Below are positions 2,690-25,085 of a stretch of 26,772 nucleotides of DNA, piece by piece. The DNA is taken from assembly GCA_023271515.1 (NCBI GenBank), contig JALPXQ010000008.1, positions 1-26,772 of the forward strand, given 5' to 3'. The notes beneath the pieces are model-generated. The model saw only the letters and a list, made by a program, of their open reading frames with translations, had not been told where the DNA came from and made no database searches. Position 1 is the first letter of the stretch, and every line of letters starts with the position of its first letter. The position numbers and the translations under genes are program-made. The stretch comes from Dehalococcoidia bacterium (GTDB lineage Bacteria > Chloroflexota > Dehalococcoidia > SZUA-161 > SpSt-899).

Positions 2690-3806
2690 TGGCAAGTATA
2701 ATAGACGAACTGGAGCCCATCATTAATCCCCGAAGCATCGCCGTGATAGGAGCCTCAGATAATCCCGCTAAGCTGGGCTATCACTGCATGAAGAGCCTGA
2801 AAGAGAGCGGGCTTCAGTCCATATATCCCATAAATCCGCGCTCTTCGGAGATTTGGGGATTTCCGGCCTATTCCTCGCTGAGAGAGATAGATCAGGAAAT
2901 CGACCTGGCTATCGTGATTGTGCCGGCCTCTGCGGTTCCTTCAGCAATAGAGGATTGTGCCCGGAAGGGGATAAAAGGCATTGTCCTTATGACTGGTGGA
3001 TTCAGGGAAGCGGAAGATCTGGCGGGCTCCAGGATGAAATAGGTTTGCTGGCAAACAAGAGTAGAATCAGGGTGATCGGTTCCAACGCATTCGGTCCATC
3101 TAAATGCCTCCTTACCCCGGAATTCCTTGCTACTTGAGGGTAAGCCTTATAAGTCAAAGTGGCGAGATATGCCACCCTCCTTGCTGATGGAATCGGAGAA
3201 AGTAATCGGCTTTTCCAAGATCGTGGACCTAGGCAACCGATGCAAATTTTCCCAACATGCTGGAGTACCTGGCGGTGGACCTGGAGACCAGGGTGATCCT
3301 GATGTATCTCGAGGGGATAGATGATGCCCGCAGGCTTATCGAGATTGCTCGGTGAGTGGCGCCCCAAAAGCCCATAGTAGCCTTCAAGTCAGGAAAGATG
3401 ACCACTGCGGACAGAGCGGCTTATTCTCATACCGGTTCCCTGGCGGGAAAGCATAAGGTCTATCTCGCCGCTTTCAGGCAGGCCGGGATCCTGTTGGCAA
3501 GCGATTTCGAGGAATTGCTGGATATCTGACCCGAACGTTGATGCCCTCTTGTTTCTCTCTGCCTATGCCTCAGCCAACGAGCCCGTAATTAGAGCGCTCG
3601 CTGCAGTGCTGAGGGAGGAGATCGAGGCTCGCCGGAAGCCGATCCTCACCTGCTTCCCGACACCACTGCGAATCTGGGAGGAAAGGGTCGAGCTGGAGAA
3701 GAGCGGCATTCCGGTTTATGCTACGCCGGAGAGGGCGGCTAGATCTCTGGCAGGTTTGGTCTGCTACGGAGATATCCCGGCTTTGGCGCTATTCACGAAA
3801 ACTTGA
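2686..3806 (+). pseudogene. ADP-forming acetyl-CoA synthetase (acetate--CoA ligase) alpha subunit, heavily degraded. It has at least 4 to 5 frameshifts, an in-frame TGA at 3353-3355 and an apparent internal deletion of about 250 nt.
   Basis: An N-terminal CoA-binding domain is intact in ORF 2686-3042 (SIAVIGASDNPAKLGY...IVPASAVPSAIEDCARKGIKGIVLMTGGF). Homology then continues across three frames: LQDEIGLLANKSRIRVIGSN, HLNASLP, ISQSGEIC, GIGFSKIVDLGN, LEYLAVDLETRVILMYLEGIDDARRLIEIAR-TGA-VAPQKPIVAFKSGKMTTADRAAYSHTGSLAG. The C-terminal tail is in ORF 3549-3806. Total length is about 1.1 kb against about 1.4 kb expected. Confidence 0.7.
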
Positions 3807-4872
3807 ACCTCCCATATTTTTCCACCATTTTTTGGTCAATGGAAGGTCCCGTCTTGTGGATCACCTCCACTAAGTCTCTCATTTCCACATCCCTTGCAAT
3901 GCCGGTCTGGATATTCTCTCTAAAGGGGATCAGCGAGGCTTTAAGGCAGATCTGCCTTATGTCCGCGCCGCTATGACCCTCGGTCATCTGTGCCAGGTTG
4001 TCGAAATCAATATCCTCTGCCAGCGGCTTTCCCTGGAGATTCAATTCAAAAATCTTTTTCCTCGCCTGAGAATCAGGGAGAGGAACATAGATAGTCTCGT
4101 CAAATCTTCCCGGTCTAAGGGCAGCATGGTCAATGCTCCATGGCTCGTTGGTTGCCCCGATGAAGAGGAGGTTCTCATTTTTCGACTCCATCCCCTCCAT
4201 CTCCGCCAAAATCTGAGGAACAACCCGTTGCATCACCGTAGACCCGGAATCCTTCCTCTTTGGAATCAGTGCTTCAACCTCGTCAATAAAAATCACCGCT
4301 CTCTTCTGATTCCTCGCCGAAGAAAACAGCTTCGCTATATTCTGCTCACTCTCCCCGACCCACTTGCTCATAATTTCGCTCGGCTTTATGCTGAAGAATA
4401 CCGCATCCACTTCATTGGCAACCGCCTTTGCGATGTAAGTCTTGCCTGTGCCAGGGGGACCGTAGAGCAAGATTCCTCCCCCGGATCTGATCCCAAACCT
4501 CTTCGCCTCTTCAGGATATAGAAAAGGATAGATTATCTTGTTCTTGATCTCCTCTTTGATATTCTCCAGTCCTGCCACGTCGTCGAAGGTTACGGCAGGT
4601 CGTTCCTGCAAGATGAATTCTGCACCTTTTCCCCTTCCCGCAGCAGCCTCCTTTTCCTTAAGAGTGATAGACTTTGCCTTCTCCAGGAGTTTCTGGGCGT
4701 TTTCAACCCTTATCAGCTTCACCCTCCCCTGCGATTCGGAAGACGCATTAAAGAGTTGTCTGCTCGCCTGCAGGTAATAGTCTCTGGCTTTTCGCAACTC
4801 GCTTTGCGCTTCCGCCTTCATTGCCTCGGCGATATATTCTTCGGCTTTTTGAAGAAATACGTCAATGCTCAT
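3793..4872 (-). CDS. vps4: MIT-domain AAA+ ATPase, Vps4/CdvC-like (copy 1).
   Basis: It has an N-terminal three-helix MIT-like region. It has Walker A GPPGTGKT, Walker B IFIDEVE, arginine finger RPGRFDE and a Vps4-type C-terminal helix. Its start overlaps the stop of the upstream ESCRT-III-like gene. Confidence 0.85.
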   Translation of the reverse strand: MSIDVFLQKAEEYIAEAMKAEAQSELRKARDYYLQASRQLFNASSESQGRVKLIRVENAQKLLEKAKSITLKEKEAAAGRGKGAEFILQERPAVTFDDVAGLENIKEEIKNKIIYPFLYPEEAKRFGIRSGGGILLYGPPGTGKTYIAKAVANEVDAVFFSIKPSEIMSKWVGESEQNIAKLFSSARNQKRAVIFIDEVEALIPKRKDSGSTVMQRVVPQILAEMEGMESKNENLLFIGATNEPWSIDHAALRPGRFDETIYVPLPDSQARKKIFELNLQGKPLAEDIDFDNLAQMTEGHSGADIRQICLKASLIPFRENIQTGIARDVEMRDLVEVIHKTGPSIDQKMVEKYGRFKFS

Positions 4873-4875
4873 CGC

Positions 4876-5475
4876 CTACCCCTTCCGCATCATGTCCTCG
4901 ACTTCCTTGATGCCCCTGGAAATCCTCTCATCCAGGCCCTTTTCCTCAGTCTCTGCCTCCCCTTCCATTGTTTTTACAATTTCGTTGATGTCTCTATCAG
5001 AGAAACCTTCGGCACTCAAGATACCCTCGCTGGCCATGTCTAAAGTAGTGGACAACGCCTCGTCGATGCCCTCTGCCTGTGCCATCGCCTTCTCAAATTC
5101 CACCTGCATGCCGGCGATCTTTTCTACATCTGGGCCTTCGGTAATGGACTCGCTTATGTCCTTAGCAAAGGTTACAAAATCCCCGGAGATCTTGACCATC
5201 TCCCGTTGAAGTCTGGCCTCGTCCATCAGCAGGAGCATCCGCTGTCCCTTTCTTATCCGTTCCTGCAAGACCAGATATTTGGCAGCCTGCCTCTTCAAAA
5301 ACTTCTCTTCATTTAGTCTAGCCGCCTGCCTTCCCTGATCGTATATCGTCTTTTGCAGGTCCATCAGCTTCGAGATGTAGCCTTTAACCCTTGCTTTCGC
5401 CTTCCTGTACCTTATCTCCCTCTCGATCTCCTTCTCTTCCCTTGATTTTCCCTTCAACTTTTTCAATATGCCCAT
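4876..5475 (-). CDS. ESCRT-III/Snf7-like protein (copy 1). It is an all-helical protein of about 200 aa with a basic N-terminus and an acidic C-terminal tail.
   Basis: The N-terminus is MGILKKLKGKSREEK..., the sequence is predicted coiled coil, and the C-terminus is acidic (EGEAETEEKGLDERISRGIKEVEDMM, MIM-like). It is translationally coupled to the Vps4-like gene. There is a GGAG Shine-Dalgarno site 7 nt upstream of ATG 5475. Confidence 0.6.
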   Translation of the reverse strand: MGILKKLKGKSREEKEIEREIRYRKAKARVKGYISKLMDLQKTIYDQGRQAARLNEEKFLKRQAAKYLVLQERIRKGQRMLLLMDEARLQREMVKISGDFVTFAKDISESITEGPDVEKIAGMQVEFEKAMAQAEGIDEALSTTLDMASEGILSAEGFSDRDINEIVKTMEGEAETEEKGLDERISRGIKEVEDMMRKG

Positions 5476-5492: not shown

Positions 5493-5542
5493 GGGTTTAC
5501 GGTTCACGGTTCTGCATAGTCTAGAGTCTAGAGTCTAGAGTC
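5493..5542. promoter_or_regulatory. Upstream region of the ESCRT-III-like copy 1 gene. It carries a partial GGTTCACGGTTC motif followed by a (AGTCTAG)x3 heptad array, which equals three overlapping palindromic TCTAGA sites spaced 7 bp apart.
   Basis: The sequence is gggtttacggttcacggttctgcat agtctag agtctag agtctag agtc. It lies 20 to 70 nt upstream of ATG 5475 on the minus strand. Confidence 0.4.
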
Positions 5543-5561
5543 CCCCGCTCCACCCCTACCT

Positions 5562-6299
5562 TCAACCTTCAGCCTTCAGCCTATCCACCTGAGTAGCTAG
5601 GATTACAGTTATATTGTCCCTTCCGTCGGTCTCTTTCGCAGAGTTTATGAGCTTCTCGCAGGCTTCATCGAGGTCTTTTGAACTTATTATGATCCGTCTT
5701 ATTTCTTCACCCCGTAAGGAATCTGTCAATCCATCAGAGCACAACAACAGATATTGACCACAAATCCGGATCTCGTAGAGGTCAGGTTTTATATCGGCAT
5801 CCGTTCCCATCACCCTGGTAATGATATTCTTTTCCGGATGATCAAAGGCCTCCTCTTCTGAGATAATACCTCTATCCACCAGTTCTTGAACGAAGGAATG
5901 GTCCTTGGTCTGCTGCTTTATCTCCTCTCCTATCAGATAAGCCCTGCTGTCGCCTATATTTGCGATCACACATCTTTCTTCTTCAATCAAGGCAGCCACC
6001 AGCGTTGTGCCCATATTACTATAGTCTGGATTTTCCCGGGCTAAACTGTATATCTCCCTATTTGTCTTCTCAAAAGCCTGCTGAAGCAGCATCCTGAAGT
6101 CAGTAATCCCCTCGCTAAATCCTTTGTTCACCGCCTCTTCCAGCTCTATCACTGCCAGCCCACTGGCAATCTCGCCGGCGCTGTGCCCGCCCAGACCGTT
6201 GGCAACGGCAAGGAGGTAAATGTCGCCGAAGCGCGTTACCGCAAGGCTATCCTCGTTATTTGCTCTCTTCCCGCTGTCAGTAAGAGATGCTATCTTCAT
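5562..6299 (-). CDS. PP2C-family (PPM) Ser/Thr protein phosphatase.
   Basis: AVANGLGGHSAGEIAS, GTTLVAALI, ANIGDSRAY and LLCSDGLTD are the conserved PPM metal-binding motifs. Its start overlaps the kinase stop by 4 nt. Confidence 0.9.
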   Translation of the reverse strand: MKIASLTDSGKRANNEDSLAVTRFGDIYLLAVANGLGGHSAGEIASGLAVIELEEAVNKGFSEGITDFRMLLQQAFEKTNREIYSLARENPDYSNMGTTLVAALIEEERCVIANIGDSRAYLIGEEIKQQTKDHSFVQELVDRGIISEEEAFDHPEKNIITRVMGTDADIKPDLYEIRICGQYLLLCSDGLTDSLRGEEIRRIIISSKDLDEACEKLINSAKETDGRDNITVILATQVDRLKAEG

Positions 6300-8553: not shown

Positions 8554-9735
8554 CTACCTCCTGCCTTGATTTACAACCTCATCTATCATCTCAAGAATCG
8601 CTCTCTTTTTCCTTTCAATCTCCTCCCTCTCGGCCTTCTTCTTTCGCCCGTAGGAAAAAATGCCTATTGACAGGATCACGGCAAAAGCAAGTGTCCCCAC
8701 GTAGATGTGATTGTTATTGATCGTCGGTGCAAAGTCTCTATAGTTGACCACGCCGTCTTGATCCAGGTCCATGGCAAGAGACTTTGCCCTTGTTGCCATC
8801 TCAAATGCCGTTTTATAATCTGCATCCTCAAATGCCTCCTCACTACCTGAAAGCAAAGCCTCGGCCATGGCTACATTGAATCCTCGTAGCTCTGCTACTC
8901 TAATTGCCTCCCTTGCCTGGTCGATCCCTTCAATGGCCAGTTCACCGTCTCTTTTAATCGTTTCTGCCGTAGTCTTTGCCTGCTCAGCAAGGGTTTTGGC
9001 GCGTCCAAAATGCCCTCCTGCAAGCGCCCTCTCGGCCTGCCGAAGAAGACCCTCAGCCTCTGTCATATCGAGCCCTTCGGCTCTCCCCCTTTGAATCGCT
9101 TTGGCGATCTCTTCAATGATAGCGGCAATTAGTGCTTCTTCCGATTCAACCTTTATCAGCCAGAGATCACTCTCACCTGCGCCAAAAGACATTGTCCAAC
9201 CGGTTACGATAAATCCGCCGTCATCGGTCTGCTGGACTGAGAGGCCCGAATCACTTTTTGCGCCACCGAATGTGCGGCTCCACTCCTTATTCCCCGCAGA
9301 ATCGGTCTTTATCAGCCAGAGATCCGACTCACCTGCGCCGAAAGACCCTGTCGTTCCGGTTACGATAAACCCGCCGTCAACCGTCTGCTGGACTGAGCAG
9401 CCCCAATCCCTGGCTGTGCCACCGAACGTGCGGCTCCACTGCTTATTACCCGCAGGATCGGTCTTTATCAGCCAGAGATCCGACTCACCTGCGCCAAAAG
9501 AGCGTGTCCAACCGGTTATGATAAATCCGCCGTCAGTTGTCTGCTGGACTGAGAGGCCCCGATCAGATTCTGCGCCACCAAATGTGCGGCTCCACTCCTT
9601 TGCCGGCGCTCGCTCTGTGGTCTCGTCAGCCACGGCCACGCCTACGAGAGGGAAAGGGAACGCCGTTACCAGCGCGGCAACCATAAGCACCACTGCCACC
9701 CCAAACAGGATTGGTGTCAGACTTTTCATGATCAA
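8554..9735 (-). CDS. Type-I membrane surface protein. It has a signal peptide, 3 tandem blade-like repeats of about 47 aa, a helical repeat, a DxDGVVN motif, a C-terminal TM helix and a conserved basic cytoplasmic tail.
   Basis: There is an N-terminal hydrophobic signal. There are three copies of [42 protein letters not shown]. The C-terminus is [55 protein letters not shown]. Confidence 0.75.
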
Positions 9736-9769
9736 AACCTCCCTGAAGATTCTTAGCGCCTCCCCCTAC

Positions 9770-10012
9770 TCATTTCCCCATTTCCCTCTCAATCCCTCTC
9801 TCCCAAATGTGCTTTGCCTCTTCAATGCTTTCATCACTGATTTTAACACTCTTCCAGATTCCTCGAAGAGAGATCACCTCCCCCTCTGGTGGAGTTTTCT
9901 GGGGCTCCCCATGAAGGATTTGCATTCTTACTCGCTCGTTCTCTCTTAAGCCAACTTTGTCCAGAAGTTTGATCACCCCTTTTTGATAGATGCCCTCTAT
10001 GACCTCGGCCAT
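9770..10012 (-). CDS. Small DUF104-like protein (archaeal antitoxin-like), orphan.
   Basis: The N-terminus MAEVIEGIYQKGVIKLLDKVGLRENERVRMQI resembles archaeal DUF104 antitoxin-type proteins. There is a GGAGGT Shine-Dalgarno site 7 nt upstream of the ATG. There is no PIN or other toxin partner adjacent. Confidence 0.45.
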   Translation of the reverse strand: MAEVIEGIYQKGVIKLLDKVGLRENERVRMQILHGEPQKTPPEGEVISLRGIWKSVKISDESIEEAKHIWERGIEREMGK

Positions 10013-10042
10013 TTTCGTTACCTCCGCTAGTTTTTGCCCACA

Positions 10043-11653
10043 CTACCCCCTGCCCTCATTTACAACCTCATCTATCATCTCAAGAATCGCTCTCTCTTTC
10101 CTTTCAATCTCCTCCTTCTCGGCCTTCTTCCGTCGGCGGCGAAAAGAAACGCCTGCTGATGCAGAGATAAGGCCCAGGACAAGAAGAAATGCTCCCATGT
10201 AGATATGATTGTTGTTGATCGTCGGTGCAAAGTCTTCATGGTTGACCACGCCGTCCCGATCCACATCTAAGGCAAGCGATTTTGCGGTTGCGGCCAGTTC
10301 TACCGCTCTTTCATACTCTCTATCATCAAATGCGCTCTCAGCCTGAGAAAGCGAGCTTTCGGCCTCCACAACATCGAAACCTTTTGCCCTTTCCTGAGAG
10401 ATTACCTGCCTTGCTTCTTCGATAGAGCTTCTTGCCAGTCTCAGTTCTCTGGTAATTTCTTCCGCTTTTGCCTTTGCCTGCCGGGCAAGGCTTATGGCTC
10501 CTCCAAAATCCCCTCCTGCAAGTGTCTCCTCAGCCTGCGAAAGTACACCCTCCGCCTCGGTCATATCGAGTCGTTTGTCTATCCCCTCCTCGATTGCATC
10601 CCTGGCCTGGTTGATCGCATCAAGCGCTGCCTGAGCTTCCCCTTTTACCTCTCGTGCGGTAACCTCTGCCTGCTGGGCAAGGCTCATGGCTTCTCCATAA
10701 TCCCCTCCTGCAAGCGCCCTCTCGGCCTGCCGCAGGAGATCCTCAGCCTCAGCCATATCGAGCCCTTCGGCTCTGCCTGTTGTTATTGCCTCCTTTGCTT
10801 GCTCGATCTGCTCCAGTGCCGCTGCCCTTCTAATCCCTTCTACCTTAGCCTCTGCCTGCTGGGCAAGGCTTATGGCTTGTTCAAAATCCCCTCCTGCAAG
10901 TGCCCGCTCGGCCTGCCGAAGGAGACGCTCGGCGTCTGTCATATCAAGCCCTTCGGCTGTTCTGGCTTCGATTACTTCTCTTGCTTTGTCGATCTCTTCA
11001 ATCGCTGCTTCAGCATCCTCTTTAATGCCTTCTGCTTTAGTCTTTGCCTGCTCAGCAAGGCTTACGGCTCTTTCAAAATCGTCTGCTGCAAGCGCCCTCT
11101 CGGCCTGCCGGAGGATATCCTCAGCTTCAGCCATGTTGAGCCCTTCGGCTCTCCCGGCTTCGATTGCCTCCCTTGCCTGGGCGATGGCATTGATGGCAAA
11201 TTGAGGCATGGGGATTTCAACAAGGTTATGGTGGATGATCTGCGCGGCATGCTGGACTATTATCCGCGGCCGCACCCTATCGGCGAGGATAGAAACCTCG
11301 CCCGGGACTTGAATAAGGTTATGGTGGATGATCTGCGCGGCATGCTGGATTATAATGCGGGGCATCACCTCACCTGCGAGGCTCACCAGGGTCTCCGCAG
11401 GCTCCACAAGGTCAAATTCTTGCACGCTGTCGGCGTCTTCCACGACAATCTCAGGGCCGCTTGCGGCATGCACCCTGGAATTTACCGCCAGATATGCCGA
11501 TACGGCCAGCACCAACGCGGCCAGAATCAAGACCATCAGGGGGATTCTCCCCCTGAAACCCCCTGAAGAGCGGTCATCCTTAGGATTTTTAAAGGAGCTT
11601 CGCTCCTTTATTCTCCAGGGCGGTTTACACTGGTTTATCCTTATCCTGAACAA
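10043..11653 (-). CDS. Type-I membrane surface protein, paralog of 8554-9735. It has a signal anchor, a 2x 31-aa tandem repeat and 5 helical repeats of about 37 aa. It ends with a DxDGVVN motif, a TM helix and the conserved tail.
   Basis: The C-terminus [72 protein letters not shown] is nearly identical to the upstream paralog at the DNA level. It contains repeats of the form [32 protein letters not shown]. The true start may be the internal Met near 11536 (MVLILAALVLAVSAYLA). Confidence 0.7.
   Translation of the reverse strand: MFRIRINQCKPPWRIKERSSFKNPKDDRSSGGFRGRIPLMVLILAALVLAVSAYLAVNSRVHAASGPEIVVEDADSVQEFDLVEPAETLVSLAGEVMPRIIIQHAAQIIHHNLIQVPGEVSILADRVRPRIIVQHAAQIIHHNLVEIPMPQFAINAIAQAREAIEAGRAEGLNMAEAEDILRQAERALAADDFERAVSLAEQAKTKAEGIKEDAEAAIEEIDKAREVIEARTAEGLDMTDAERLLRQAERALAGGDFEQAISLAQQAEAKVEGIRRAAALEQIEQAKEAITTGRAEGLDMAEAEDLLRQAERALAGGDYGEAMSLAQQAEVTAREVKGEAQAALDAINQARDAIEEGIDKRLDMTEAEGVLSQAEETLAGGDFGGAISLARQAKAKAEEITRELRLARSSIEEARQVISQERAKGFDVVEAESSLSQAESAFDDREYERAVELAATAKSLALDVDRDGVVNHEDFAPTINNNHIYMGAFLLVLGLISASAGVSFRRRRKKAEKEEIERKERAILEMIDEVVNEGRG
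11222..11407. repeat. 93-bp tandem direct repeat (2 copies) within surface protein gene 10043-11653.
   Basis: aaggttatggtggatgatctgcgcggcatgctgga occurs at 11222 and 11315. It encodes the duplicated 31-aa segment PRIIIQHAAQIIHHNL. Confidence 0.8.
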
Positions 11654-12595: not shown

Positions 12596-15500
12596 TCAGG
12601 CAGCTCGTCTTTTTATGAGTAAGACGATCAGTCCTAGCGCTGCAATTCCGGCTGCGATCCACGGGTTCGCCTGAACAAGCTGAATAAGCTGAGCAAGTAG
12701 TCTTTCACCAATGCGAAGTAGTCTTTCGCCAATATCAAGTAGTCTTTCACCAATGTCTGGTGCCTGGGGCAAGACCACCTCGACTATTGTTGAGAAACTA
12801 TTTATCACCCCATCGTTATCTGCTATCGTCAGTGTTACCATATAGTCTCCAGCAACTGAAAAGCTATGCTCGATTACCCTACCAGTTCCAGTGGTTCCAT
12901 CCCCAAAGTCCCATTCATAGGATATTATCTCGCCATCAGGGTCAGACGAACCAGACGCATCGAAGGTGATGGGCTGATCTACAATCATCTCCTCCGGGGA
13001 GTATGCAAAAGATGCGATTGGTTGTTGAAGCATTCTCTGTTCCTCAAATACCCCGTCGCCATCAGCATCCGTCTTCATGGTAACCCCTGCCTGGACGGGA
13101 ACTTCTGTATCAATAACAAATCGGTGTGTTGTAGTCTCTGTCGTGGGGACATCAGTAATAGCAAAACTCTCAATTTGTCCTTCCACGCTAGAAATCGTTG
13201 TTAATCGATATGTTGCCTCCTCTATACCTGCAACCTCTAAGTAATAGATGCCAGTTGGAGCAAATATAGTAACAATCTTATTTTCCGTATCATACATTGA
13301 ATATGGAATTTCTTCTTTTACTACTCCATCTACTAAACCAGTAACTCGTCCCTGAGAATCGTAAACCCGTAACTCTCCAGGACTGGCAAATGCTACAACT
13401 CTGAGGTCAGCAGGCAATATATTCAGAAATTCTCTTCTGATAAAATGTGCTGCGATATTCTTGTGAGAATCCATCCTGATAGTGGTAACGGGTGCATGTA
13501 CATCTGCAATAGTCCCAACATCTCCTTTCCAACCAACAAACTTCCAACCTGGAGCAGGATATGCCCTAATTTCTACTTGTTTTAGTTCTCCTCTAGGAAA
13601 AATAGTATCTCCAGGTTTATTAACTGTCCCCTCGCCAATAATATCCATTGAAAGTGTTACATCTTCGGAAATGAAGGTAACCAATGCAAACCCTATTATT
13701 GGATTCCCCCTCCAAAAATCTTGATATACACCTATTCCAAGACTTACAAGAGTATTTCCTGCAGCTCTAATAAGATTAATAGGAGCAAGGAGACGGTCTA
13801 TAACCCACCCTTTACCATACTCCCTAACTGTATCAGATTTTGCAATATCAAGTAAAAGTGGTGGTAAAGAATTAAGTACGACTTCACGCCCTTCAGGACA
13901 GAATACAATAGTTCTAGGAGTTAACACAAGCTGCCCCATCTGTAATAATGTTCTAGATTGAATATATTCTACAACTTCTTTTAAATGCTCATGATCCTCA
14001 AATTCTATATAAAGTTGTAATGCAAACTTAGGTTCAGCCGGAACTCCAAATACTCCTAATGCTGCTGATAATAATTCCATTGCTATTGCAACGTGCACTA
14101 TCGCCATTTCAACTTCCAATATATCTCCAGGTAGAAGAGTATTAAGCTTCACCGTGTATGTTACGCTTCCCTTAGGAGGGACTAGTCTAAAATAATTACC
14201 AAAACTTTCTTTCTGAAGATGTTCCATAAAGCCATCTATACTTTCTAAAGTTACATCTTCCCTAATAAACCGAGGTTTAAATTCAACCCACATATCTAAA
14301 GAGTTGTGTACAGTTAGCTCAACAATGCGCTTCTCCTCATCGACATATATAGGAGCAGATCCCCTTATACGCCAATCATCACCGCTAATTTTAAAAAACG
14401 CTGTTTTATATGGTAGTGCCGGCGGGGTGACTTCTAGTGCCTCGGTGAAGGTCCTTGAAGCCAGGTGCCGATCCCCAGCATCTATCCTGCCGTTGTTGTT
14501 GACATCCTCCACCAGAGAGACGAGCAGGTTATACCTGCCTGGGGGTGCATCTGTCGGCATTACAAACGAACGCTGGACGGTGCTGGAACCTGAAACGATG
14601 GCGACCTGGCGATCATTGGCCGGATCGCTCAGAGGCGATCTCCCGGGCAACTGGATGCTGGCCCCCAACAGAACCGTCCTTGTGGGCCCTGGATTTGCCA
14701 CGTTGTATGTAATGGTGATCGTCTCTCCGGCCGCAGCGGTGCTGGGTGACGGGTGAGCAGATGTGATTGTTGGGTCTGGTGGTGGCGCCGGCGGGGTGAC
14801 TTGTAGTGCCCCGGTGAAGGTCCTTGAAGCCAGGTGCCGATCCCCGGCATCTATCCTGCCGTTGTTGTTGACATCCTCCACCAGAGAGACGAGCAGGTTA
14901 TACCTGCCTGGGGGTGCATCTGTCGGCATTACAAACGAACGCTGGACGGTGCTGGAACCTGAAACGATGGCGACCTGGCGATCATTGGCCGGATCGCTCA
15001 GAGGCGATCTCCCGGGCAACTGGATGCTGGCCCCCAACAGAACCGTCCTTGTGGGCCCTGGATTTGCCACGTTGTATGCAATGGTGATCGTCTCTCCGGC
15101 CGTAGCCGTGCTGGGTGACGGGTGAGCAGATGTGATTGTTGGGGCTGGTGGTGGTGCCGCCAGTAGACGAAGCCTGCTGGGCGTGGAGCTGCCAATGTTG
15201 TTATTCTCATTCGATTCGGTGACTTGTTTAAAGCCATCAACAAAGACTGTCACATAGTAATCCCCCGGGGCAGGAACTGCTGATGGGATGGCGTTAGTGG
15301 TGATAGTGAGCGTTCTAGAGGCACCAGGACCGAGCGAGGCTACAGGGAAATTGCCCAAACCGTGGCGAGTTCCCCATCGACGGGTGGATAGAGAAACACG
15401 GAGGTGGAATGAGCCCGAGGCGGCATCACCCCGGTTTTTCACTGTAAAAGCAACCGAAATTTCATCGCCGTGAGCTACCTCAGCAGGGTCGAAGGTGACG

Positions 15501-15631
15501 CGGGTCGTCACAGTAAGATCAGGGAGTCCAGCGCTGGCTATCGCGGTGGGTACTGTCAAAGCGCTCGCGCTGAACAGCAGCAGGGTGGTCATAAGGATGG
15601 CGAAAATGCTGAGAGTAGTTCTCTTTTGCAT
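12596..15631 (-). CDS. Large surface adhesin-like protein of 1011 aa. It has a signal peptide, a CARDB-like domain, 2 identical Ig-like repeats of 123 aa, a central domain of unknown function, a PKD domain and a C-terminal TM anchor preceded by 3x IGERLL.
   Basis: The N-terminal signal is followed by a CARDB-like segment (PDLTVTTRVTFDPAEVAHGDEISVAFTVKNRGDAASG). The PKD motif is ITFDASGSSDPDGEIISYEWDFGDGTTGTG...GDYMVTLTIADNDG. The C-terminus is PWIAAGIAALGLIVLLIKRRAA. There is an AGGAGG Shine-Dalgarno site upstream of ATG 15631. Confidence 0.8.
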   Translation of the reverse strand: MQKRTTLSIFAILMTTLLLFSASALTVPTAIASAGLPDLTVTTRVTFDPAEVAHGDEISVAFTVKNRGDAASGSFHLRVSLSTRRWGTRHGLGNFPVASLGPGASRTLTITTNAIPSAVPAPGDYYVTVFVDGFKQVTESNENNNIGSSTPSRLRLLAAPPPAPTITSAHPSPSTATAGETITIAYNVANPGPTRTVLLGASIQLPGRSPLSDPANDRQVAIVSGSSTVQRSFVMPTDAPPGRYNLLVSLVEDVNNNGRIDAGDRHLASRTFTGALQVTPPAPPPDPTITSAHPSPSTAAAGETITITYNVANPGPTRTVLLGASIQLPGRSPLSDPANDRQVAIVSGSSTVQRSFVMPTDAPPGRYNLLVSLVEDVNNNGRIDAGDRHLASRTFTEALEVTPPALPYKTAFFKISGDDWRIRGSAPIYVDEEKRIVELTVHNSLDMWVEFKPRFIREDVTLESIDGFMEHLQKESFGNYFRLVPPKGSVTYTVKLNTLLPGDILEVEMAIVHVAIAMELLSAALGVFGVPAEPKFALQLYIEFEDHEHLKEVVEYIQSRTLLQMGQLVLTPRTIVFCPEGREVVLNSLPPLLLDIAKSDTVREYGKGWVIDRLLAPINLIRAAGNTLVSLGIGVYQDFWRGNPIIGFALVTFISEDVTLSMDIIGEGTVNKPGDTIFPRGELKQVEIRAYPAPGWKFVGWKGDVGTIADVHAPVTTIRMDSHKNIAAHFIRREFLNILPADLRVVAFASPGELRVYDSQGRVTGLVDGVVKEEIPYSMYDTENKIVTIFAPTGIYYLEVAGIEEATYRLTTISSVEGQIESFAITDVPTTETTTHRFVIDTEVPVQAGVTMKTDADGDGVFEEQRMLQQPIASFAYSPEEMIVDQPITFDASGSSDPDGEIISYEWDFGDGTTGTGRVIEHSFSVAGDYMVTLTIADNDGVINSFSTIVEVVLPQAPDIGERLLDIGERLLRIGERLLAQLIQLVQANPWIAAGIAALGLIVLLIKRRAA
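14400..15137. repeat. Perfect tandem duplication, 2 copies of 369 bp differing by a few SNPs, inside adhesin gene 12596-15631.
   Basis: The block starting near 14421 (ggcggggtgacttctagtgcc...) recurs at 14790. The two ORF-track antisense ORFs 14304-14756 and 14763-15125 are near-identical. The duplication encodes a duplicated Ig-like module of 123 aa. Confidence 0.9.
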
Positions 15632-15752
15632 GATTTCCTCCTTAATATTCTAGCACCTCTTGCAGGTCTGCTCCCACTGAATTTTCAATTCTTTTGCAAG
15701 GTAAGCGTTCAGCCAGCCTTTCCCCATTTATCCCTCCTTTGACCTTCACCCT

Positions 15753-17009
15753 TCAGCCTACCTTATATTCCCTGGCAGCCTCTATCAACTCCCTGAACAT
15801 CTCACCCTCTCCCGTTCCGCTTAATTCTTTGACTGCTTTTGGATACCAAGAAGCAAGCACAGTCTTCTTCCCTTTCAACACCTGGTCGAAGTCTTCCATC
15901 GTTATCTCTCTCCTGGGGGTCATCTCTTTGATCCTCTCCCCCAGGGGAATCATTGCCGCCTTCTCACAGATATCTGCGATCTCAGCGCTGGCATATCCCT
16001 CGGTGATCTCTGCCAGTCTCTGCAGACTGACTGATCTGGAGACAGGCTTATTCTTCAGATTTATCTCCAGGATTTTTTTGCGAGCCTCAATATCGGGATG
16101 GGGGAGGAAAACCGTTGTATCGAACCTCCCTGACCTTCTCAAAGCAACATCAACAGCCCAGGGGCGATTGGTAGCTGCAAGAACAAGATAGCGTTTAGTT
16201 GTGCCTTTCGCTTCCAGACCATCCATCTGTGATAACAGCTCGCTTACCAGGCTTCTCTCGTGCCCCTCCATTGACCCGGAGCGCTCCCCTGCCAGGGAGT
16301 CGAACTCATCGAAGAATAACATTGCCTTTTCATAGCTTCTGGCAACGTTGAAGATTTCCTTGATGTTTTTCTCGCTTTCTCCTACGTATTTGTCCTTGAT
16401 ATCGCTGCCTTTTAGACTGACGAAGGCTGCATCGGATTCGGCCGCCGCCGCCGCCGCGAGCATCGTTTTTCCGCATCCCGGAGGACCGTATAAGAGAATC
16501 CCCCCACCCGGTTTAACCCCAAAGTACTCGTACTCCTCCGGGTACTTGAAGGGATAAACAATTGCCTCCTTGATGTTCTCCTTTACTCTGGCTAAACCGG
16601 CGATATCGCTGAATCTTATCTTCGGTTTTTCCGCCAGGATCAGACCTTTAACCCTCTCCCCTGTCTTTTCTTTCTCTATCCTCCCCCCGGGTGTCTTTTT
16701 AACCCCTTCCTCCGGTGGTATCATGCCATCCGTATATACTTTAACAGTCCCTTCTTTGAGCCCCTCGGCGATCTCCCTGAATTTCTTGGATCTGTCCAGC
16801 AGCTCTTTTCGCTTATCCCTCGGTGACATATCTGCAAGATGCTCCAGGAATTTAGCGCACTTTAAGTACTCCACACTGGCTTTCGCCATGCTGCCTTCAT
16901 CATAGTGCCTCCTGGCCAGATTAAGGGATTTCTTATACTCGGCTTGGACCGCATCTCTCAGCTCCATACTTATTCCCTCCATAGTCGGGTTATCGGGTTC
17001 AGGGTTCAC
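15753..17009 (-). CDS. vps4: MIT-domain AAA+ ATPase, Vps4/CdvC-like (copy 2). The likely true start is ATG 16967 (MELRD...).
   Basis: It has an MIT-like N-terminus. It has Walker A GPPGCGKT, Walker B LFFDEFD, RSGRFDT and a Vps4-like C-terminus. The ORF-track start 17009 is GTG. An internal ATG at 16967 is preceded by GGAGGGA with a 6 nt spacer. Confidence 0.85.
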   Translation of the reverse strand: MNPEPDNPTMEGISMELRDAVQAEYKKSLNLARRHYDEGSMAKASVEYLKCAKFLEHLADMSPRDKRKELLDRSKKFREIAEGLKEGTVKVYTDGMIPPEEGVKKTPGGRIEKEKTGERVKGLILAEKPKIRFSDIAGLARVKENIKEAIVYPFKYPEEYEYFGVKPGGGILLYGPPGCGKTMLAAAAAAESDAAFVSLKGSDIKDKYVGESEKNIKEIFNVARSYEKAMLFFDEFDSLAGERSGSMEGHERSLVSELLSQMDGLEAKGTTKRYLVLAATNRPWAVDVALRRSGRFDTTVFLPHPDIEARKKILEINLKNKPVSRSVSLQRLAEITEGYASAEIADICEKAAMIPLGERIKEMTPRREITMEDFDQVLKGKKTVLASWYPKAVKELSGTGEGEMFRELIEAAREYKVG

Positions 17010-17106
17010 GGGTCACGGTTGATGGTTCACGGTTCATGGTTATTTGTCTAACCGTTCAATCTTGATCGCTCTAACCTTGAACCGTGAACCCCGGCAACTT
17101 TGAATC
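16987..17106. repeat. GGTTCA-rich inverted-repeat intergenic element (copy B), in the 5' region of the Vps4-like copy 2 gene.
   Basis: The sequence is gggttatcgggttcagggttcacgggtcacggttgatggttcacggttcatgg...taaccgttcaatcttgatcg...cttgaaccgtgaacc. The arms GGTTCACGGTTCA and TGAACCGTGAACC form a dyad. Confidence 0.7.
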
Positions 17107-17113
17107 TAAGCAG

Positions 17114-17743
17114 CTACAGCGTCTCTAACTCTTCTTCCTCCCTCTCTCTGGCAACTCTCTCTTTTAGCAGCCTCTCAGCTATCTGCTCAGCTTCGGCTTC
17201 ATTTGCCGTTTCCAAGACGTCCATGTATCTCTTTATCTCTTCGTCCTCCTTGGGTTTGGCAAGTAAGCCCAATTCTCCATCTAACATCTCAAGTAAGTTG
17301 TCCACATTCCCTTTCGCTATCTCATTCTGCAGGTTCACTTGTGCCAGAAACTTTTCCAGCTTACTCGCCGGTAGTTTGGTCAGCTTGGTCATTATGCCCT
17401 TATGTGCCAGCAACTCTTGGCTCTCCTGGGTGAAAACCAGATTGTCCACTACTCGAAGTTGGTCGTTGATGTTCTTCAGATACTTGTCGTCGAGTGCCAT
17501 CTCGCGCTCCAAACGCAGCATCTGCCTTGCAGTGCTCCTTTTCTTCGCCTCGCTGCTTTCTCCCGAGCCTTGTTTTATTAGCGCCCTGAACTGCTGAGAC
17601 GCCTTGTCAACCTTTGCTATCCTCAGCTTCTCTTCCCTTTCCAGCCTGATCCTTTCGGCTATCAGGTCATCCTTCTTCAGCTTCTCGAAGGGGTTTCCCT
17701 TTATTTTGTCCAGAATTCCCATTGTGTTTGCCTCCTTTTTCAT
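17114..17743 (-). CDS. ESCRT-III/Snf7-like protein (copy 2). The likely true start is ATG 17722 (MGILDKIKG...).
   Basis: An internal start MGILDKIKG mirrors MGILKKLKG of copy 1 and has an AAGGAGG Shine-Dalgarno site 8 nt upstream. It is all helical with an acidic C-terminus (AREREEEELETL). It lies directly upstream of Vps4-like copy 2. Confidence 0.6.
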   Translation of the reverse strand: MKKEANTMGILDKIKGNPFEKLKKDDLIAERIRLEREEKLRIAKVDKASQQFRALIKQGSGESSEAKKRSTARQMLRLEREMALDDKYLKNINDQLRVVDNLVFTQESQELLAHKGIMTKLTKLPASKLEKFLAQVNLQNEIAKGNVDNLLEMLDGELGLLAKPKEDEEIKRYMDVLETANEAEAEQIAERLLKERVAREREEEELETL

Positions 17744-17771
17744 TTGAGCCAGTTTGTCTTTGCTGTTTGTA

Positions 17772-17879
17772 GCTAGTCAGGTTGTCAGGTTCACGGTTCA
17801 TGGTAGTTTGTCTAACCGTTCAATCTTGATCGGTTGATCGGTGTAACCTTGAACCTCGGAACTTTGAACCTGACTAGTC
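17772..17879. repeat. GGTTCA inverted-repeat element (copy C1), flanked by a perfect 12-nt inverted repeat gctagtcaggtt / aacctgactagc.
   Basis: It has the same core as copy B (caggttgtcaggttcacggttca...tctaaccgttcaatcttgatcgg...taaccttgaacctcggaactttgaacctga). It lies upstream of the ESCRT-III-like copy 2 gene. Confidence 0.7.
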
Positions 17880-17925
17880 TTTGCTGCCTACATTTCATTC
17901 TTTCCTGTGACTTCTCACCTCCTTT

Positions 17926-17997
17926 CAGGTTGTCAGGTTCACGGTTCAATCTTGATCGGGCTAACCTTGAATCGTGAACCCCGGAACTTTGAACCTG
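17926..17997. repeat. GGTTCA inverted-repeat element (copy C2).
   Basis: The sequence is caggttgtcaggttcacggttcaatcttgatcgggctaaccttgaatcgtgaaccccggaactttgaacctg. It is a direct repeat of the C1 core 147 bp downstream. Confidence 0.7.
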
Positions 17998-18002
17998 AGT
18001 AC

Positions 18003-18295
18003 TTAGCATTGACTTAGCATATTCTCGATGGCAATGCGCTCTTTCTCAAGGAGACCCAATGCTTCATACTCCCCAGCCCATATCATTGCCTCCTGATCGT
18101 CTCCATCAAGACCCTTCTCGAATTTCTTGAGAAATTCTTTGCTGCTCATTCCTGTACTCTGCTCAAAATCTCTCAGCTTCTTCCTTGTGGTAGAGATGCT
18201 CCTATCCAGCAAGAGCTTTTCTCTTTTAAGCGATGCTTCCAACACGCCAACCGCTGTCACAACATCTGGAACCTCAAGCTTTATCACACCCATAT
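18003..18295 (-). CDS. Small hypothetical protein of about 96 aa, the last gene of the six-gene operon.
   Basis: There is a GGAGGT Shine-Dalgarno site 6 nt upstream of ATG 18295 (MGVIKLEVPD...). It lies downstream of 18356-19978. The longer ORF-track start at 18359 is unlikely because it overlaps the upstream gene. Confidence 0.45.
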
Positions 18296-18355
18296 AATTA
18301 CCTCCTACTACCCTCATTTCATCTCCACCTGGTATGTAAGGATTCCCCAAAATTC

Positions 18356-22048: not shown

Positions 22049-22136
22049 TTTCTATCCTCCTTCTTCTAGGTTCTACGTTGTCTGGTCACTGCCGACCTCT
22101 GACTTCTCACCTGTCACTTCTGACCTCTGTACACGC

Positions 22137-23297: not shown

Positions 23298-24871
23298 TAT
23301 CTCTCCACCTCCATCATACCTTTAATGATTGCGAATTCCTTCTCCGAGATCCTTTCTCTAATTCTCAGTGTGTCGGCCCCATTGGCGATAACAGAACGCT
23401 TGCGCGAAGAAGAACCAAGAATAGAATTACTGGATATGTGTCCCAGAAGCGCTAATTCAAGTTCCCGATCACTCATCAACCTGTTTGTCAGATTCTCCGT
23501 GAATAGAGCATCAAGCCCTTCCCGATGATCCCCCCCGCTGAATTTTGCAAGCAAGGATGAAGCAAGTGATTTCGACTCCTCTGTGACAGAGTTTGGTGGA
23601 AATATCATGAATCTCTGCGTTCCTGCTTTTTCATCCTTGAAAAGAGCAACGAAAGCTGGAATATATACCAAAAAGGAGCCCTGAGCATCTTCGGCCACGC
23701 CGGGTAAGGGCAGGCTGATACTTAATTCATTTATCCTGTCAGTCAGTGCGTTCTTTGCATTTATGATGTATGCCTCTTTAGCAGCCATGAATCTCTCGAG
23801 CAGACGCTCGACACTTTGCATCTTCTCCTTGAATTCATACCTGATGCTCTCTGTCTCATTGTCGAAATTCTCCACTTGCTCATCCAGAGCCAGCAGTTGA
23901 TTATGTAGTTCTGTTCTACGGTTTGCGGCTCTCTCTTTGATTTCTCTGATAGCCTTGTCTATATCCACCAACTGATTCTTACATTCGGTGATAGAGTCTT
24001 TAAGCCGTTCCACTTCACCGGAAGTGCTGGAGAGTTGTTTATTTAGCTGCTGAATCTTGTGTTCTACGGTCTTCCGGCGACCCATACGATCAGAGAGCAA
24101 ATTCTCCTCATCTTCGTCGTTATCCCTTTTCAATTGCTTTATCTCGGCCGCCTTTATCTTAAACGCATCTATCATCTCTCTCCGTTTCTTGTTCCTCATC
24201 ACCATCGTCTTTTCACATTCTTCGGAGAGATTTGCTATCAATAACTGGCTTCTTTGTGTTATTAGTTCCTGAATATCATCCAGGTGAGATGGCAAACTGG
24301 ACAATTTGTCCTCCTCGCACTCCAGCATCTGATGAATCTCTTCAACCTCCTTATTTTGCTCGAAGCTATCGGTGTCGAATAAGAAAACATCTGTGCTTTC
24401 CGTTTCAAAGACGGAGCCCAAAAGCTCCCTTAAATCGTCCAGAGCTTGTTTGCCAGGCAGCGACTCGAATGCTCGTGTATGCTCTTTAACCTCTGCAATC
24501 GATGCGACCAGTGTGGAAAGTCCCCTTATGAACTCATCATAGTCGGTCTCTGCTCGAGCGAATGTTTTCTCCAGAGATTCTAGATCGTGCACCACAATCT
24601 CCGGGAAGGATAAGATCTTCTTTTGTGCCAAAGCCTCATGCAAGATCACTATACCCCGTCCCCGGCGAGCATAAAAAGATATAAGAACGGGGATAGCCAA
24701 CTCTGCTATCCCCCTCACAATCTCCGCCGACTTCTTAAAGAGCCCACCACCCTTTTTGCTCCGGTGCACATTCAGCACCAACCTGGGCAGATATTCCGCT
24801 TCCGGCATCCTGCTTCCACTTGATATTGCAAAGTGAACTGACTTCATGTTTCCCCCTCTTATCAGGTTCAA
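23297..24871 (-). CDS. Coiled-coil protein of unknown function, the first gene of the six-gene operon. The likely true start is ATG 24847 (MKSVHF...).
   Basis: It is a 524 aa ORF with a long central coiled coil (residues about 200-380) and a C-terminal globular part. The ORF-track start 24871 is TTG. An internal ATG at 24847 has a G-rich Shine-Dalgarno site. Confidence 0.5.
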   Translation of the reverse strand: MNLIRGGNMKSVHFAISSGSRMPEAEYLPRLVLNVHRSKKGGGLFKKSAEIVRGIAELAIPVLISFYARRGRGIVILHEALAQKKILSFPEIVVHDLESLEKTFARAETDYDEFIRGLSTLVASIAEVKEHTRAFESLPGKQALDDLRELLGSVFETESTDVFLFDTDSFEQNKEVEEIHQMLECEEDKLSSLPSHLDDIQELITQRSQLLIANLSEECEKTMVMRNKKRREMIDAFKIKAAEIKQLKRDNDEDEENLLSDRMGRRKTVEHKIQQLNKQLSSTSGEVERLKDSITECKNQLVDIDKAIREIKERAANRRTELHNQLLALDEQVENFDNETESIRYEFKEKMQSVERLLERFMAAKEAYIINAKNALTDRINELSISLPLPGVAEDAQGSFLVYIPAFVALFKDEKAGTQRFMIFPPNSVTEESKSLASSLLAKFSGGDHREGLDALFTENLTNRLMSDRELELALLGHISSNSILGSSSRKRSVIANGADTLRIRERISEKEFAIIKGMMEVER

Positions 24872-24908
24872 GGCTCAGGGGTTCACGGTTCAAGGGTTCC
24901 CCTGAGGG
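24864..24908. repeat. GGTTCA-type element (copy D) with a hairpin ctcagggg...cccctgag, in the 5' leader of the six-gene operon.
   Basis: The sequence is caggttcaaggctcaggggttcacggttcaagggttcccctgagg. Confidence 0.55.
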
Positions 24909-25085
24909 ATCACCCTGAAGGGTTAGACCGCTCAAGATTCGTAGAGCTTTCTCCTCTCATCCTCCCCACCTTATGCACCAGGATGTCGGCCTGGTTCACG
25001 AGTTCAGCCGGAATAGGCGTCTTTTTCTTCACTCTCCGCTTTATCTGTTCTCTTAAGGTGTATCAAGCTGTTGTGCCACGATTGT

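Follow-up and report, generated by a model that had tools for sequence, protein, structure and literature searches.

Heptamer-repeat elements between minus-strand genes

We analysed a stretch of 26,772 nucleotides (nt) from a Dehalococcoidia bacterium (contig JALPXQ010000008.1 of assembly GCA_023271515.1; hereafter the window), in which arrays of GGTTCA-type heptamers, arranged as inverted repeats, recur in the short gaps between genes. Along the minus strand the order is a kinase gene, the fourth copy of the repeat element, genes of 516, 385, 604, 78, 540 and 118 amino acids (aa), copies C3 and C2, a 202-aa gene, copy C1 and a gene for an AAA ATPase; a second gene pair, encoding a 199-aa protein and an AAA protein, lies at 3793-5475. 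A preliminary description of this DNA had taken the repeats to be either a shared operator or a miniature inverted-repeat element, and had added that their hairpin might encode a small structured RNA. We conclude, with good confidence, that they are variously decayed copies of a non-autonomous DNA transposon, that is, a transposable element of the miniature inverted-repeat kind (MITE).

The repeats are real and far above chance, and every match falls at a place that the preliminary description had named. In the window the motif GGTTCACGGTTCA occurs, with at most two mismatches, at 13 sites (0.48 expected; 13 reached in 0 of 100 shuffles), the heptamer GGTTCAC 13 times (1.86 expected) and the 19-nt core AACCGTTCAATCTTGATCG three times (0 expected). 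Copy boundaries were taken from matches to a hidden Markov model (HMM) of the family and then adjusted by hand alignment against the family consensus. Copy C1 (16977-17117, minus strand; HMM E = 1.2e-32), between the 202-aa gene and the AAA ATPase gene, has degenerate ends; its heptamer array covers 16996-17041, with 6.6 heptamers on one side, and its inner 19-nt arms (17024-17042 and 17072-17090) are 95% complementary. C2 (17769-17881, minus strand; E = 5.2e-27) is the most complete copy in the window, with ends GTAGCTAGTCAGG (17769-17781) and CCTGACTAGTCTT (17869-17881) and an internal 8-nt duplication, TTGATCGG occurring twice. The perfect 12-nt terminal repeat once assigned to C1 is actually that of C2, and is 11 nt long (CTAGTCAGGTT at 17773-17783 and AACCTGACTAG at 17867-17877). 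C3 (17925-18006, minus strand; E = 1.6e-24) is an internal-deletion variant; its outer inverted repeat CTAAGTACTCAGG (17994-18006), a two-mismatch match, overlaps the stop codon of the 118-aa open reading frame (ORF), and its inner end is cut down to TCAGG. The spacer of about 40 nt followed by an inverse arm, said to be common to all copies, does not extend to C3, the arms of which are only 19 nt apart, and C2 has a degenerate version of the inverse arm.

Upstream of the 516-aa operon, the partial copy reported at 24864-24908 is present, but it is longer than was thought (24858-24939; E = 1.7e-08), contains the core and lies on the plus strand, opposite to C1-C3; it breaks off after the core, with a centre inverted with respect to those copies. 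A 19-nt arm relic with neither core nor terminal repeat (5494-5512, minus strand; under the HMM threshold) precedes the 199-aa/AAA pair. The gap before the 199-aa gene holds three consecutive heptamer arrays (GGTTCAC x2.7, AGTCTAG x3.6 and ACCTTCA x3.6), and the stretch 5518-5600 (minus strand), which includes a (GACTCTA)x3.6 array (5518-5542), a (CTGAAGG)-type array (5558-5582) and the terminal-repeat-like CTAGCTACTCAGG (5588-5600), looks from its sequence like what is left of sister elements whose arms had other sequences. This relic encodes the stop codon and about the last ten codons of a PP2C phosphatase gene (5562-6299). Terminal inverted repeats within two mismatches are found in the window at 17769-17781, 17994-18006 and 5588-5600.

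The copies had been placed in the 5' leaders of minus-strand genes. Their flanking genes are indeed all on the minus strand, but the copies are equally intercistronic: C1 and C3 start at or inside the stop codons of the upstream genes, and for this reason they belong between two cistrons as much as in a leader. The TAG stop codon of the 202-aa gene (17114-17116) lies inside the outer inverted repeat of C1, and the stop codons of this gene and of the 118-aa ORF (17114-17117 and 18003-18006) both fall within the outer repeats of C1 and C3, from which it follows that the insertions set the present 3' ends of both genes. At another locus of the family, L166, the duplicated target likewise covers a stop/start overlap. 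A further heptamer array, GACCTCT x5.1 (22094-22129), occupies the gap between the 385-aa and 604-aa genes (22049-22136) and ends in the right-terminus-like CAGACAACGTAGAACC; a 17-nt unit of the same gap, CCTGTGACTTCTCACCT, recurs at 17904-17920, between C3 and C2.

Termini, target duplications and passenger ORF

A full copy consists of GTAACTAYTCAGG, (GGTTCAN)n, a core, (NTGAACC)n and CCTGAGTAGTTAC; in the alignment of copies (A4) this reads GTAACTACTCAGG TTCAAAGTTCCGGGGTTCAcGGTTCAAGGTTAGA, the core, and then CAACCGTGAACC (NTGAACC)n TGACAACCTGAGTAGTTAC. The terminal inverted repeats GTAACTACTCAGGTT and AACCTGAGTAGTTAC are found in 68-73 copies. Window copies measure 82-141 nt, and most members of the family 80-300 nt. 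Target-site duplications, which the preliminary description had proposed to look for, are found family-wide: when the 8-nt flanks of the 68 non-redundant copies that have both ends are compared, they agree at all eight positions in 22 (a number that includes three samples of one site, at L166), at seven in 6 and at six in 8, as compared with 0.5 perfect flanks in a permutation control and none in an offset control. In copies from related AH-958 single-cell genomes (L003 and L043) the flanks match at 7 of 8 positions. Three copies that still carry an ORF have perfect 8-bp direct repeats, namely L166 (TACGAATA), which is inserted exactly between aroA and aroK, L176 (GAAGGAAT) and L190 (TATTTTTT). 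In the window only C2 bears a trace, a candidate decayed duplication of TGCTGTTT (17761-17768) and TGCTGCCT (17882-17889) that agree at 6 of 8 positions, overlapped by a 10-nt direct repeat, GTCTTTGCTG (17756-17765 and 17877-17886). The family thus combines a length below about 500 bp without coding capacity, terminal inverted repeats, a duplication of fixed length and multiple dispersed copies, the last in several genomes and on more than 120 metagenome contigs, and the miniature inverted-repeat alternative of the preliminary description is borne out.

The terminal 12 nt of the family, GTAACTAYTCAG, and the 8-bp length of its duplication are those of IS66-like elements. On the Geobacillus plasmid pHTA426, a gene annotated 'IS66-like element ISGka4 family transposase' lies between the ends GTATCTATTCAGCCC and GGGCTGAATAGTTAC with an 8-bp duplication, GACGAGTT; ISDge4 of Deinococcus (IS66 family, ISBst12 group) has the repeats GTGACTACTCAGCA and GTAACTGCTCAGCA and an 8-bp direct repeat (PMC12898284). 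Repeats starting GTAA and 8-bp direct repeats, as expected of an IS66 derivative, are therefore both present in the family. Identity with the pHTA426 element ends after the 12 nt, which are followed by CCC there and by GGTTCAAAG in the family, and these insertion sequences are about 1.6 kb long and encode a DDE transposase of 450-485 aa, whereas the family encodes none. Because the family shares its first 12 nt and its duplication length with them, mobilisation in trans by a transposase of this kind is the best inference, and we consider that the family was probably moved in this way.

Spread as a REP/REPIN by a RAYT (an IS200/IS605-like tyrosine transposase), or an origin as an integron attC site, would account for an intergenic palindromic doublet of about 100 nt, for the GTAG tetranucleotide in the terminal repeat (GAGTAGTTAC) and for the nested GC-rich hairpin modules of some copies; the palindromic ends and GTAG had suggested both candidates. 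Neither process makes 8-bp target duplications, however, and these are so frequent in the family that we rejected both, the termini moreover agreeing with IS66-like DDE elements. As for attC sites in particular, the copies are solitary or irregularly spaced, in mixed orientation and without cassette arrays, and the expected RYYYAAC / GTTRRRY is not matched by their ends, which read GTAAC / GTTAC and have fully paired spacers. We regard an origin of either type as extremely improbable.

What lies between the arms connects the MITE family to a protein gene. A metagenome scan with the left arm only showed that the same ends enclose several different central modules, and in the longest versions an ORF starts directly after the left arm (MKIERFEDIEAWQ...) and stops inside the right arm. 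The parent form is a cassette of about 460 bp, and longer relatives carry between their arms a gene for a 130-aa four-helix-bundle protein (23S_rRNA_IVP, or S23p). The full-length 130-aa proteins of L166 and L176 have precomputed PF05635 assignments, and a full-length relative of the ORF in L110, which has different flanking repeats, matches PF05635 (5.9e-37) and TIGR02436 (3.4e-33); the family's own 43-aa N-terminal ORF fragment scores 2e-6, under the Pfam gathering threshold. Relatives number more than 2500. Each type of central module is the relic of a different part of the S23p ORF, and the spacer of the window copies, CGATCAAGATTGAACGGTTAGACAAATAACC, is the first 20 or so nt of the ORF (its ATG mutated to ATC) joined to the last 12 or so. 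Among the loci sampled, copies that lack the ORF are more numerous than those that bear it.

Some variants are composite. A nested GC-rich hairpin module, CCTGGGCCTGCGGCCGGGGGCAGGCC, is found in many copies of different genomes and in either arm (the right arm in L004, L011, L035, L043, L007 and L037, the left arm in L003), and whole elements are nested in others at L147, L054, L058 and L082. Elements at L070 (9831-9870 and 14010-14186) have the terminus GTAACTAYTCAG and arms of CACAAAG-type repeats, so that this terminus is common to several arm subfamilies.

S23p genes on plasmids of two cultured bacteria, Riemerella anatipestifer and a Nostoc sp., also lie between inverted arrays of short tandem repeats, in these cases without IS66-type ends. 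The Riemerella gene is flanked by GGTTTAAGGTTCAAGGTTTAAG and AAACCTTAAACCTTGAATTTTGAACCTTGAACC, of the GGTTYAA type (L192 310-345 and 810-880), and the Nostoc gene by (GGGAAAA)n and its inverse (L193 340-385 and 775-815). An S23p ORF between inverted short-tandem-repeat arrays thus looks, as far as sequences can indicate, like a general unit found across phyla, of which the marine-sediment lineage studied here would be a version with transposon ends.

Dispersal, strain variation and transcription

The operator proposal of the preliminary description would make the GGTTCA heptamer arrays the sites of a bound factor, and the ESCRT-like gene pairs and the operon a regulon. All five copies or relics of the window do lie in short gaps before these genes, arrays of short repeats are plausible protein-binding sites, and MITEs can carry sites for regulators, as does the Correia element for IHF (PMC10969869). 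We scanned one genome per species for the core pattern and obtained 43 loci, 16 of which also have flanks that match the element. These 16 members are spread over six assemblies: five are on contigs of the single-cell amplified genome AH-958-J08, two on contigs of AH-958-E22 and six on contigs of one unclassified bacterial metagenome-assembled genome (MAG), and the remaining three are in another Dehalococcoidia MAG, a MAG labelled Bacillota and a Methanophagales MAG, one in each. There are thus multiple dispersed copies per genome (on at least five contigs of AH-958-J08 and at least six of one MAG), and the HMM adds further copies within the scanned loci, for example three in the 2.3-kb contig L014. 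The left-arm metagenome scan returned at least 120 loci, and the same scan of viral contigs returned 0 matches. The members of the Methanophagales bin (an ANME-1 archaeon; L024 2115-2216) and of the Bacillota bin (L007 1722-1865) reflect either horizontal spread across domains or mis-binned contigs.

The family is dispersed among many sediment bacteria. The genes next to these copies, in related and in unrelated genomes, have no relation to those of the window: rpsM and map, pnp, gatB and birA, accC, gdh, aroE, RtcB and genes for an ABC transporter and an acyl-CoA dehydrogenase, with one element sitting between nusA and infB. Relative to genes outside the window, six copies are sense, three antisense and two convergent, the last lying downstream of both neighbours; within the window three are sense and one antisense. 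The sites are neither confined to a linked set of genes nor positionally conserved upstream of one. As to the random spread, inside coding regions included, that the preliminary description had set against its own proposal, the motif is spread with no tie to these genes, yet it stays intergenic.

Comparison of related strains bears on the same question. The 202-aa protein (100% identical to P0001) is identical to one in GCA_023271155.1 and 97% identical to one in GCA_023271535.1. Both assemblies are labelled Dehalococcoidia bacterium, the isolate names AH-958-J08 and AH-958-E22 are of the type given to single-cell amplified genomes, and GCA_023271155.1 has been assigned to the 'AH-958 group' of the Dehalococcoidia family SpSt-899 (PMC10570749). 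Coding DNA is 97-99% identical between the window and related contigs, and the arrangement differs. An archaeal origin, which the ESCRT label might suggest, was rejected in view of this identity to Dehalococcoidia contigs and of the bacterial genes, such as pnp, that adjoin family members in those genomes. In strain L001, C1 has a 30-nt insertion and a 28-nt deletion (four heptamers), and C2 and C3 show clustered arm substitutions between strains. Upstream of the 516-aa operon, each of three strains has its own version of the site; the window and L002 agree there over the outer arm and the start of the gene (100% identical, collinear), and the core of the fourth copy matches L002 in reverse orientation (18 of 19 positions). 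The copies evolve much faster than the adjacent genes, unlike a conserved operator. With unrelated housekeeping neighbours, both orientations, gross differences (four heptamers lost, a core inverted) between strains with 98-99% identical genes, and duplications of the transposon type at the flanks, we consider a shared operator very unlikely; no ESCRT-like regulon is defined by these repeats, and the similarity of the intergenic regions is that of transposon litter.

The RNA folding that the preliminary description had suggested gave long imperfect hairpins for the single strands of C1, C2 and C3 (-42.3, -41.7 and -25.2 kcal/mol; z = -3.1, -6.9 and -2.7; for DNA folds z = -4.2, -5.4 and -3.2). 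Such hairpins might mark a selected structured RNA, a cis-regulatory leader or a small RNA whose hairpin is functional and whose DNA repeats are secondary, and it is in favour of this that three window copies are sense within a probable polycistronic unit, and that G.T pairs slightly exceed A.C pairs on the sense strand (46 versus 28). A single column accounts for most of that excess, however. The outer 15-bp stem, scored over 73 copies, has 972 Watson-Crick cells and over 120 mismatches, as against about 6 cells with double (compensatory) changes. It is identity of sequence that maintains the pairing, with very few compensatory changes, and this gives no evidence for a selected RNA. A search of Rfam found 0 matches at the gathering score, and only chance-level ones at E values up to 10; orientation relative to transcription is mixed, and at the centre the 'loop' is the remnant of an ORF in decay, of which many different deletion forms exist. 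Real as the hairpins are, we consider a structured RNA quite improbable as their explanation. Nor do the elements appear to have seeded promoters, as had also been suggested, since a scan of 16900-18100 for sigma-70-type promoters gave one site (0.9 expected), and this lies outside the elements. As a candidate IHF site, the core ATCAAGATTGAA did not fit WATCAANNNNTTR by eye.

The history of the MITE copies can be sketched as follows. A complete element, with outer terminal repeats GTAACTAYTCAGG ... CCTGAGTAGTTAC, two inverted arms of variable heptamer number and a central segment, inserts into AT-rich intergenic DNA and duplicates 8 bp of the target, most likely spreading through mobilisation in trans by an IS66-like DDE transposase of the ISBst12/ISGka4 type. 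The window copies derive from the parent cassette of about 460 bp by internal deletion, their spacer being what was left of the two ends of the ORF. After lodging in short gaps between genes of the same strand, they have gained and lost heptamers, and the centre flips through recombination of one inverted arm with the other. Co-transcription with the neighbouring genes is plausible in such a tight same-strand cluster; co-transcribed copies would place an imperfect hairpin of 20-35 bp in the mRNA, which might serve as an RNase III target or as a stem that stabilises the message upstream of it, by analogy with Correia elements, for which such effects are documented (PMC10969869), and with the intervening sequences of rRNA, and in this way the copies may affect the expression of their neighbours.

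Several points weigh against a MITE of this origin. In 1.13 Mb of fetched loci we found no transposase with these termini: a scan for the IS66 CxxHxRR motif and tblastn with the pHTA426 transposase returned nothing, and where terminal repeats form pairs 0.9-6 kb apart, the genes between them are ordinary ones (nuo, flagellar rod, pseudopilins). Mobilisation in trans is argued from the identity of terminus and duplication with elements of other phyla (Geobacillus, Deinococcus). The window copies have degenerate ends, with a duplication-like flank (6 of 8) at C2 only, and may accordingly be long dead. Five copies or relics in 27 kb, all beside the 'ESCRT-like' pairs and the operon, could amount to a local enrichment. 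Finally, known IS66 ends do not include the heptamer arms, and similar arms occur beside the S23p genes of Riemerella and Nostoc that lack these termini, so that the arms may have a function beyond the transposon model.

Related elements and neighbouring genes

Like the present family, the Correia/NEMIS elements of Neisseria and the ERIC elements of enterobacteria are non-coding, 80-160 nt long and bounded by terminal inverted repeats and a target duplication; they too have many intergenic copies, often co-transcribed, with a hairpin that is a potential RNase III substrate, and show inversion and strain-to-strain polymorphism (PMC10969869). RNase III cuts Correia elements in particular, and these are able to invert (PMC10969869). 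They differ in having a TA duplication, 26-bp repeats, promoters and an IHF site, as against an 8-bp duplication in the family and no promoter-like site found in the scanned window copies; furthermore, the arms of the family are tandem heptamers, and its centre is the relic of a passenger ORF, not of a transposase gene.

The closest parallel to the ORF-bearing form is the 23S rRNA intervening sequence. That of Coxiella burnetii has a 28-bp terminal stem, the loop of which holds an S23p ORF, tandem heptamers (GACAGAT) in strain-variable number directly before the ORF, a decaying ORF and excision by RNase III (PMC4990558). The family shares with the Coxiella and Leptospira sequences the long stem of terminal repeats, the PF05635 ORF in the loop and the reductive evolution of this ORF, and with that of Coxiella the variable-number heptamers directly upstream of it. 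The parent copies L166, L176 and L190 possess stem, S23p ORF and heptamers together, and the window copies keep about 30 nt of ORF relic. The heptamer differs (GACAGAT in Coxiella, GGTTCAN in the family), and so does the location, because intervening sequences occupy 23S rRNA (its helix 25 or 45) and have their excision by RNase III as a defining feature, whereas the family copies, those of the window included, lie between protein-coding genes; six conserved rRNA motifs were found in none of the fetched loci. An origin of intervening sequences by transposition has been put forward only as a hypothesis (Ralph and McClelland 1993, as cited in PMC4990558).

The parent form also resembles the mobile insertion cassettes (MICs). 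A MIC, such as MIC231 of Bacillus cereus, carries a passenger gene and no transposase between inverted repeats of the insertion-sequence type, and is presumably moved in trans. MIC231 uses the ends of IS231, whereas the family has IS66-like ends, and in every case the gene that it carries as passenger is an S23p gene enclosed by heptamer arms. Elements of this kind are known, and what appears from the sequences to be new is the pedigree, in which IS66-type ends, an S23p passenger, heptamer arms and abundant ORF-less derivatives come together; we found no description of this combination in the open-access texts searched. The family joins IS66-type transposition, S23p genes and heptamer-built hairpins like those of Coxiella, subjects that are usually treated separately, and the target-site duplications around ORF-bearing copies are direct sequence evidence that S23p cassettes transpose.

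A wider reading would treat the S23p cassette as a selfish unit, of which the rRNA intervening sequences are another instance. The S23p gene within inverted tandem-repeat arrays would be a self-contained cassette in Chloroflexota, Pseudomonadota, Bacteroidota, Cyanobacteria and Coxiella; one large lineage would have gained IS66-type ends and would transpose with 8-bp duplications; the repeat-built hairpin would let RNase III cut the element out of host rRNA or operon mRNA, so that insertions are tolerated; and the pentameric S23p protein would bind the repeat arrays. We offer this joint scheme tentatively and think it possible, though on balance doubtful; if true, it would answer a 30-year-old question, the origin of the rRNA intervening sequences, and give S23p a role. 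Of practical interest for the annotation of genomes that carry it, the element is abundant (more than 120 contigs of the metagenome collection searched), causes assemblies to break, provides host genes with stop codons and marks rearrangement at the level of strains.

Among the neighbouring genes of the window, the 202-aa gene (17114-17722, minus strand), flanked by C2 and C1, had been called ESCRT-III-like. Its true start is MGILDK, seven codons downstream of the start of a 209-aa ORF. The protein has no sequence match in Pfam or PDB; its AlphaFold2 model (mean predicted local distance difference test score, 80.6) shows short helices after a long helical hairpin, and Foldseek gave weak hits only (E about 1), with CdvB2, CHMP1B and Vipp1 among other coiled coils. 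Homologues of this family occur among proteins labelled archaeal and among proteins labelled Dehalococcoidia. The single-domain AAA ATPase gene (15753-16967, minus strand), formerly called Vps4-like, matches Pfam AAA (4.5e-39) and AAA_lid_3, and the best PDB sequence matches of its product are the D2 domains of CDC48/p97/VAT. The labels ESCRT-III-like and Vps4-like, for these two genes as well as for the pair at 3793-5475, are not established.

Other segments differ between the strains. A three-gene segment of 2.8 kb (205 aa, 254 aa and a 334-aa Band_7 protein; L001 6606-9384) is present in both related strains, between the 540-aa and 118-aa genes, and is absent from the window at 18344-18355; no copy of the element was detected at these breakpoints. 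The gene for a 1011-aa secreted repeat/PKD protein (12709-15701), which contains a 369-bp tandem duplication (14411-15159; 97-98% identical), is missing in strain L001 and present in L002. Two paralogous genes for membrane-anchored proteins of 393 and 536 aa (8554-11653) have 3' ends that are 85-100% identical, and carry tandem coding repeats of 156 nt and 192 nt, the number of which varies between strains.

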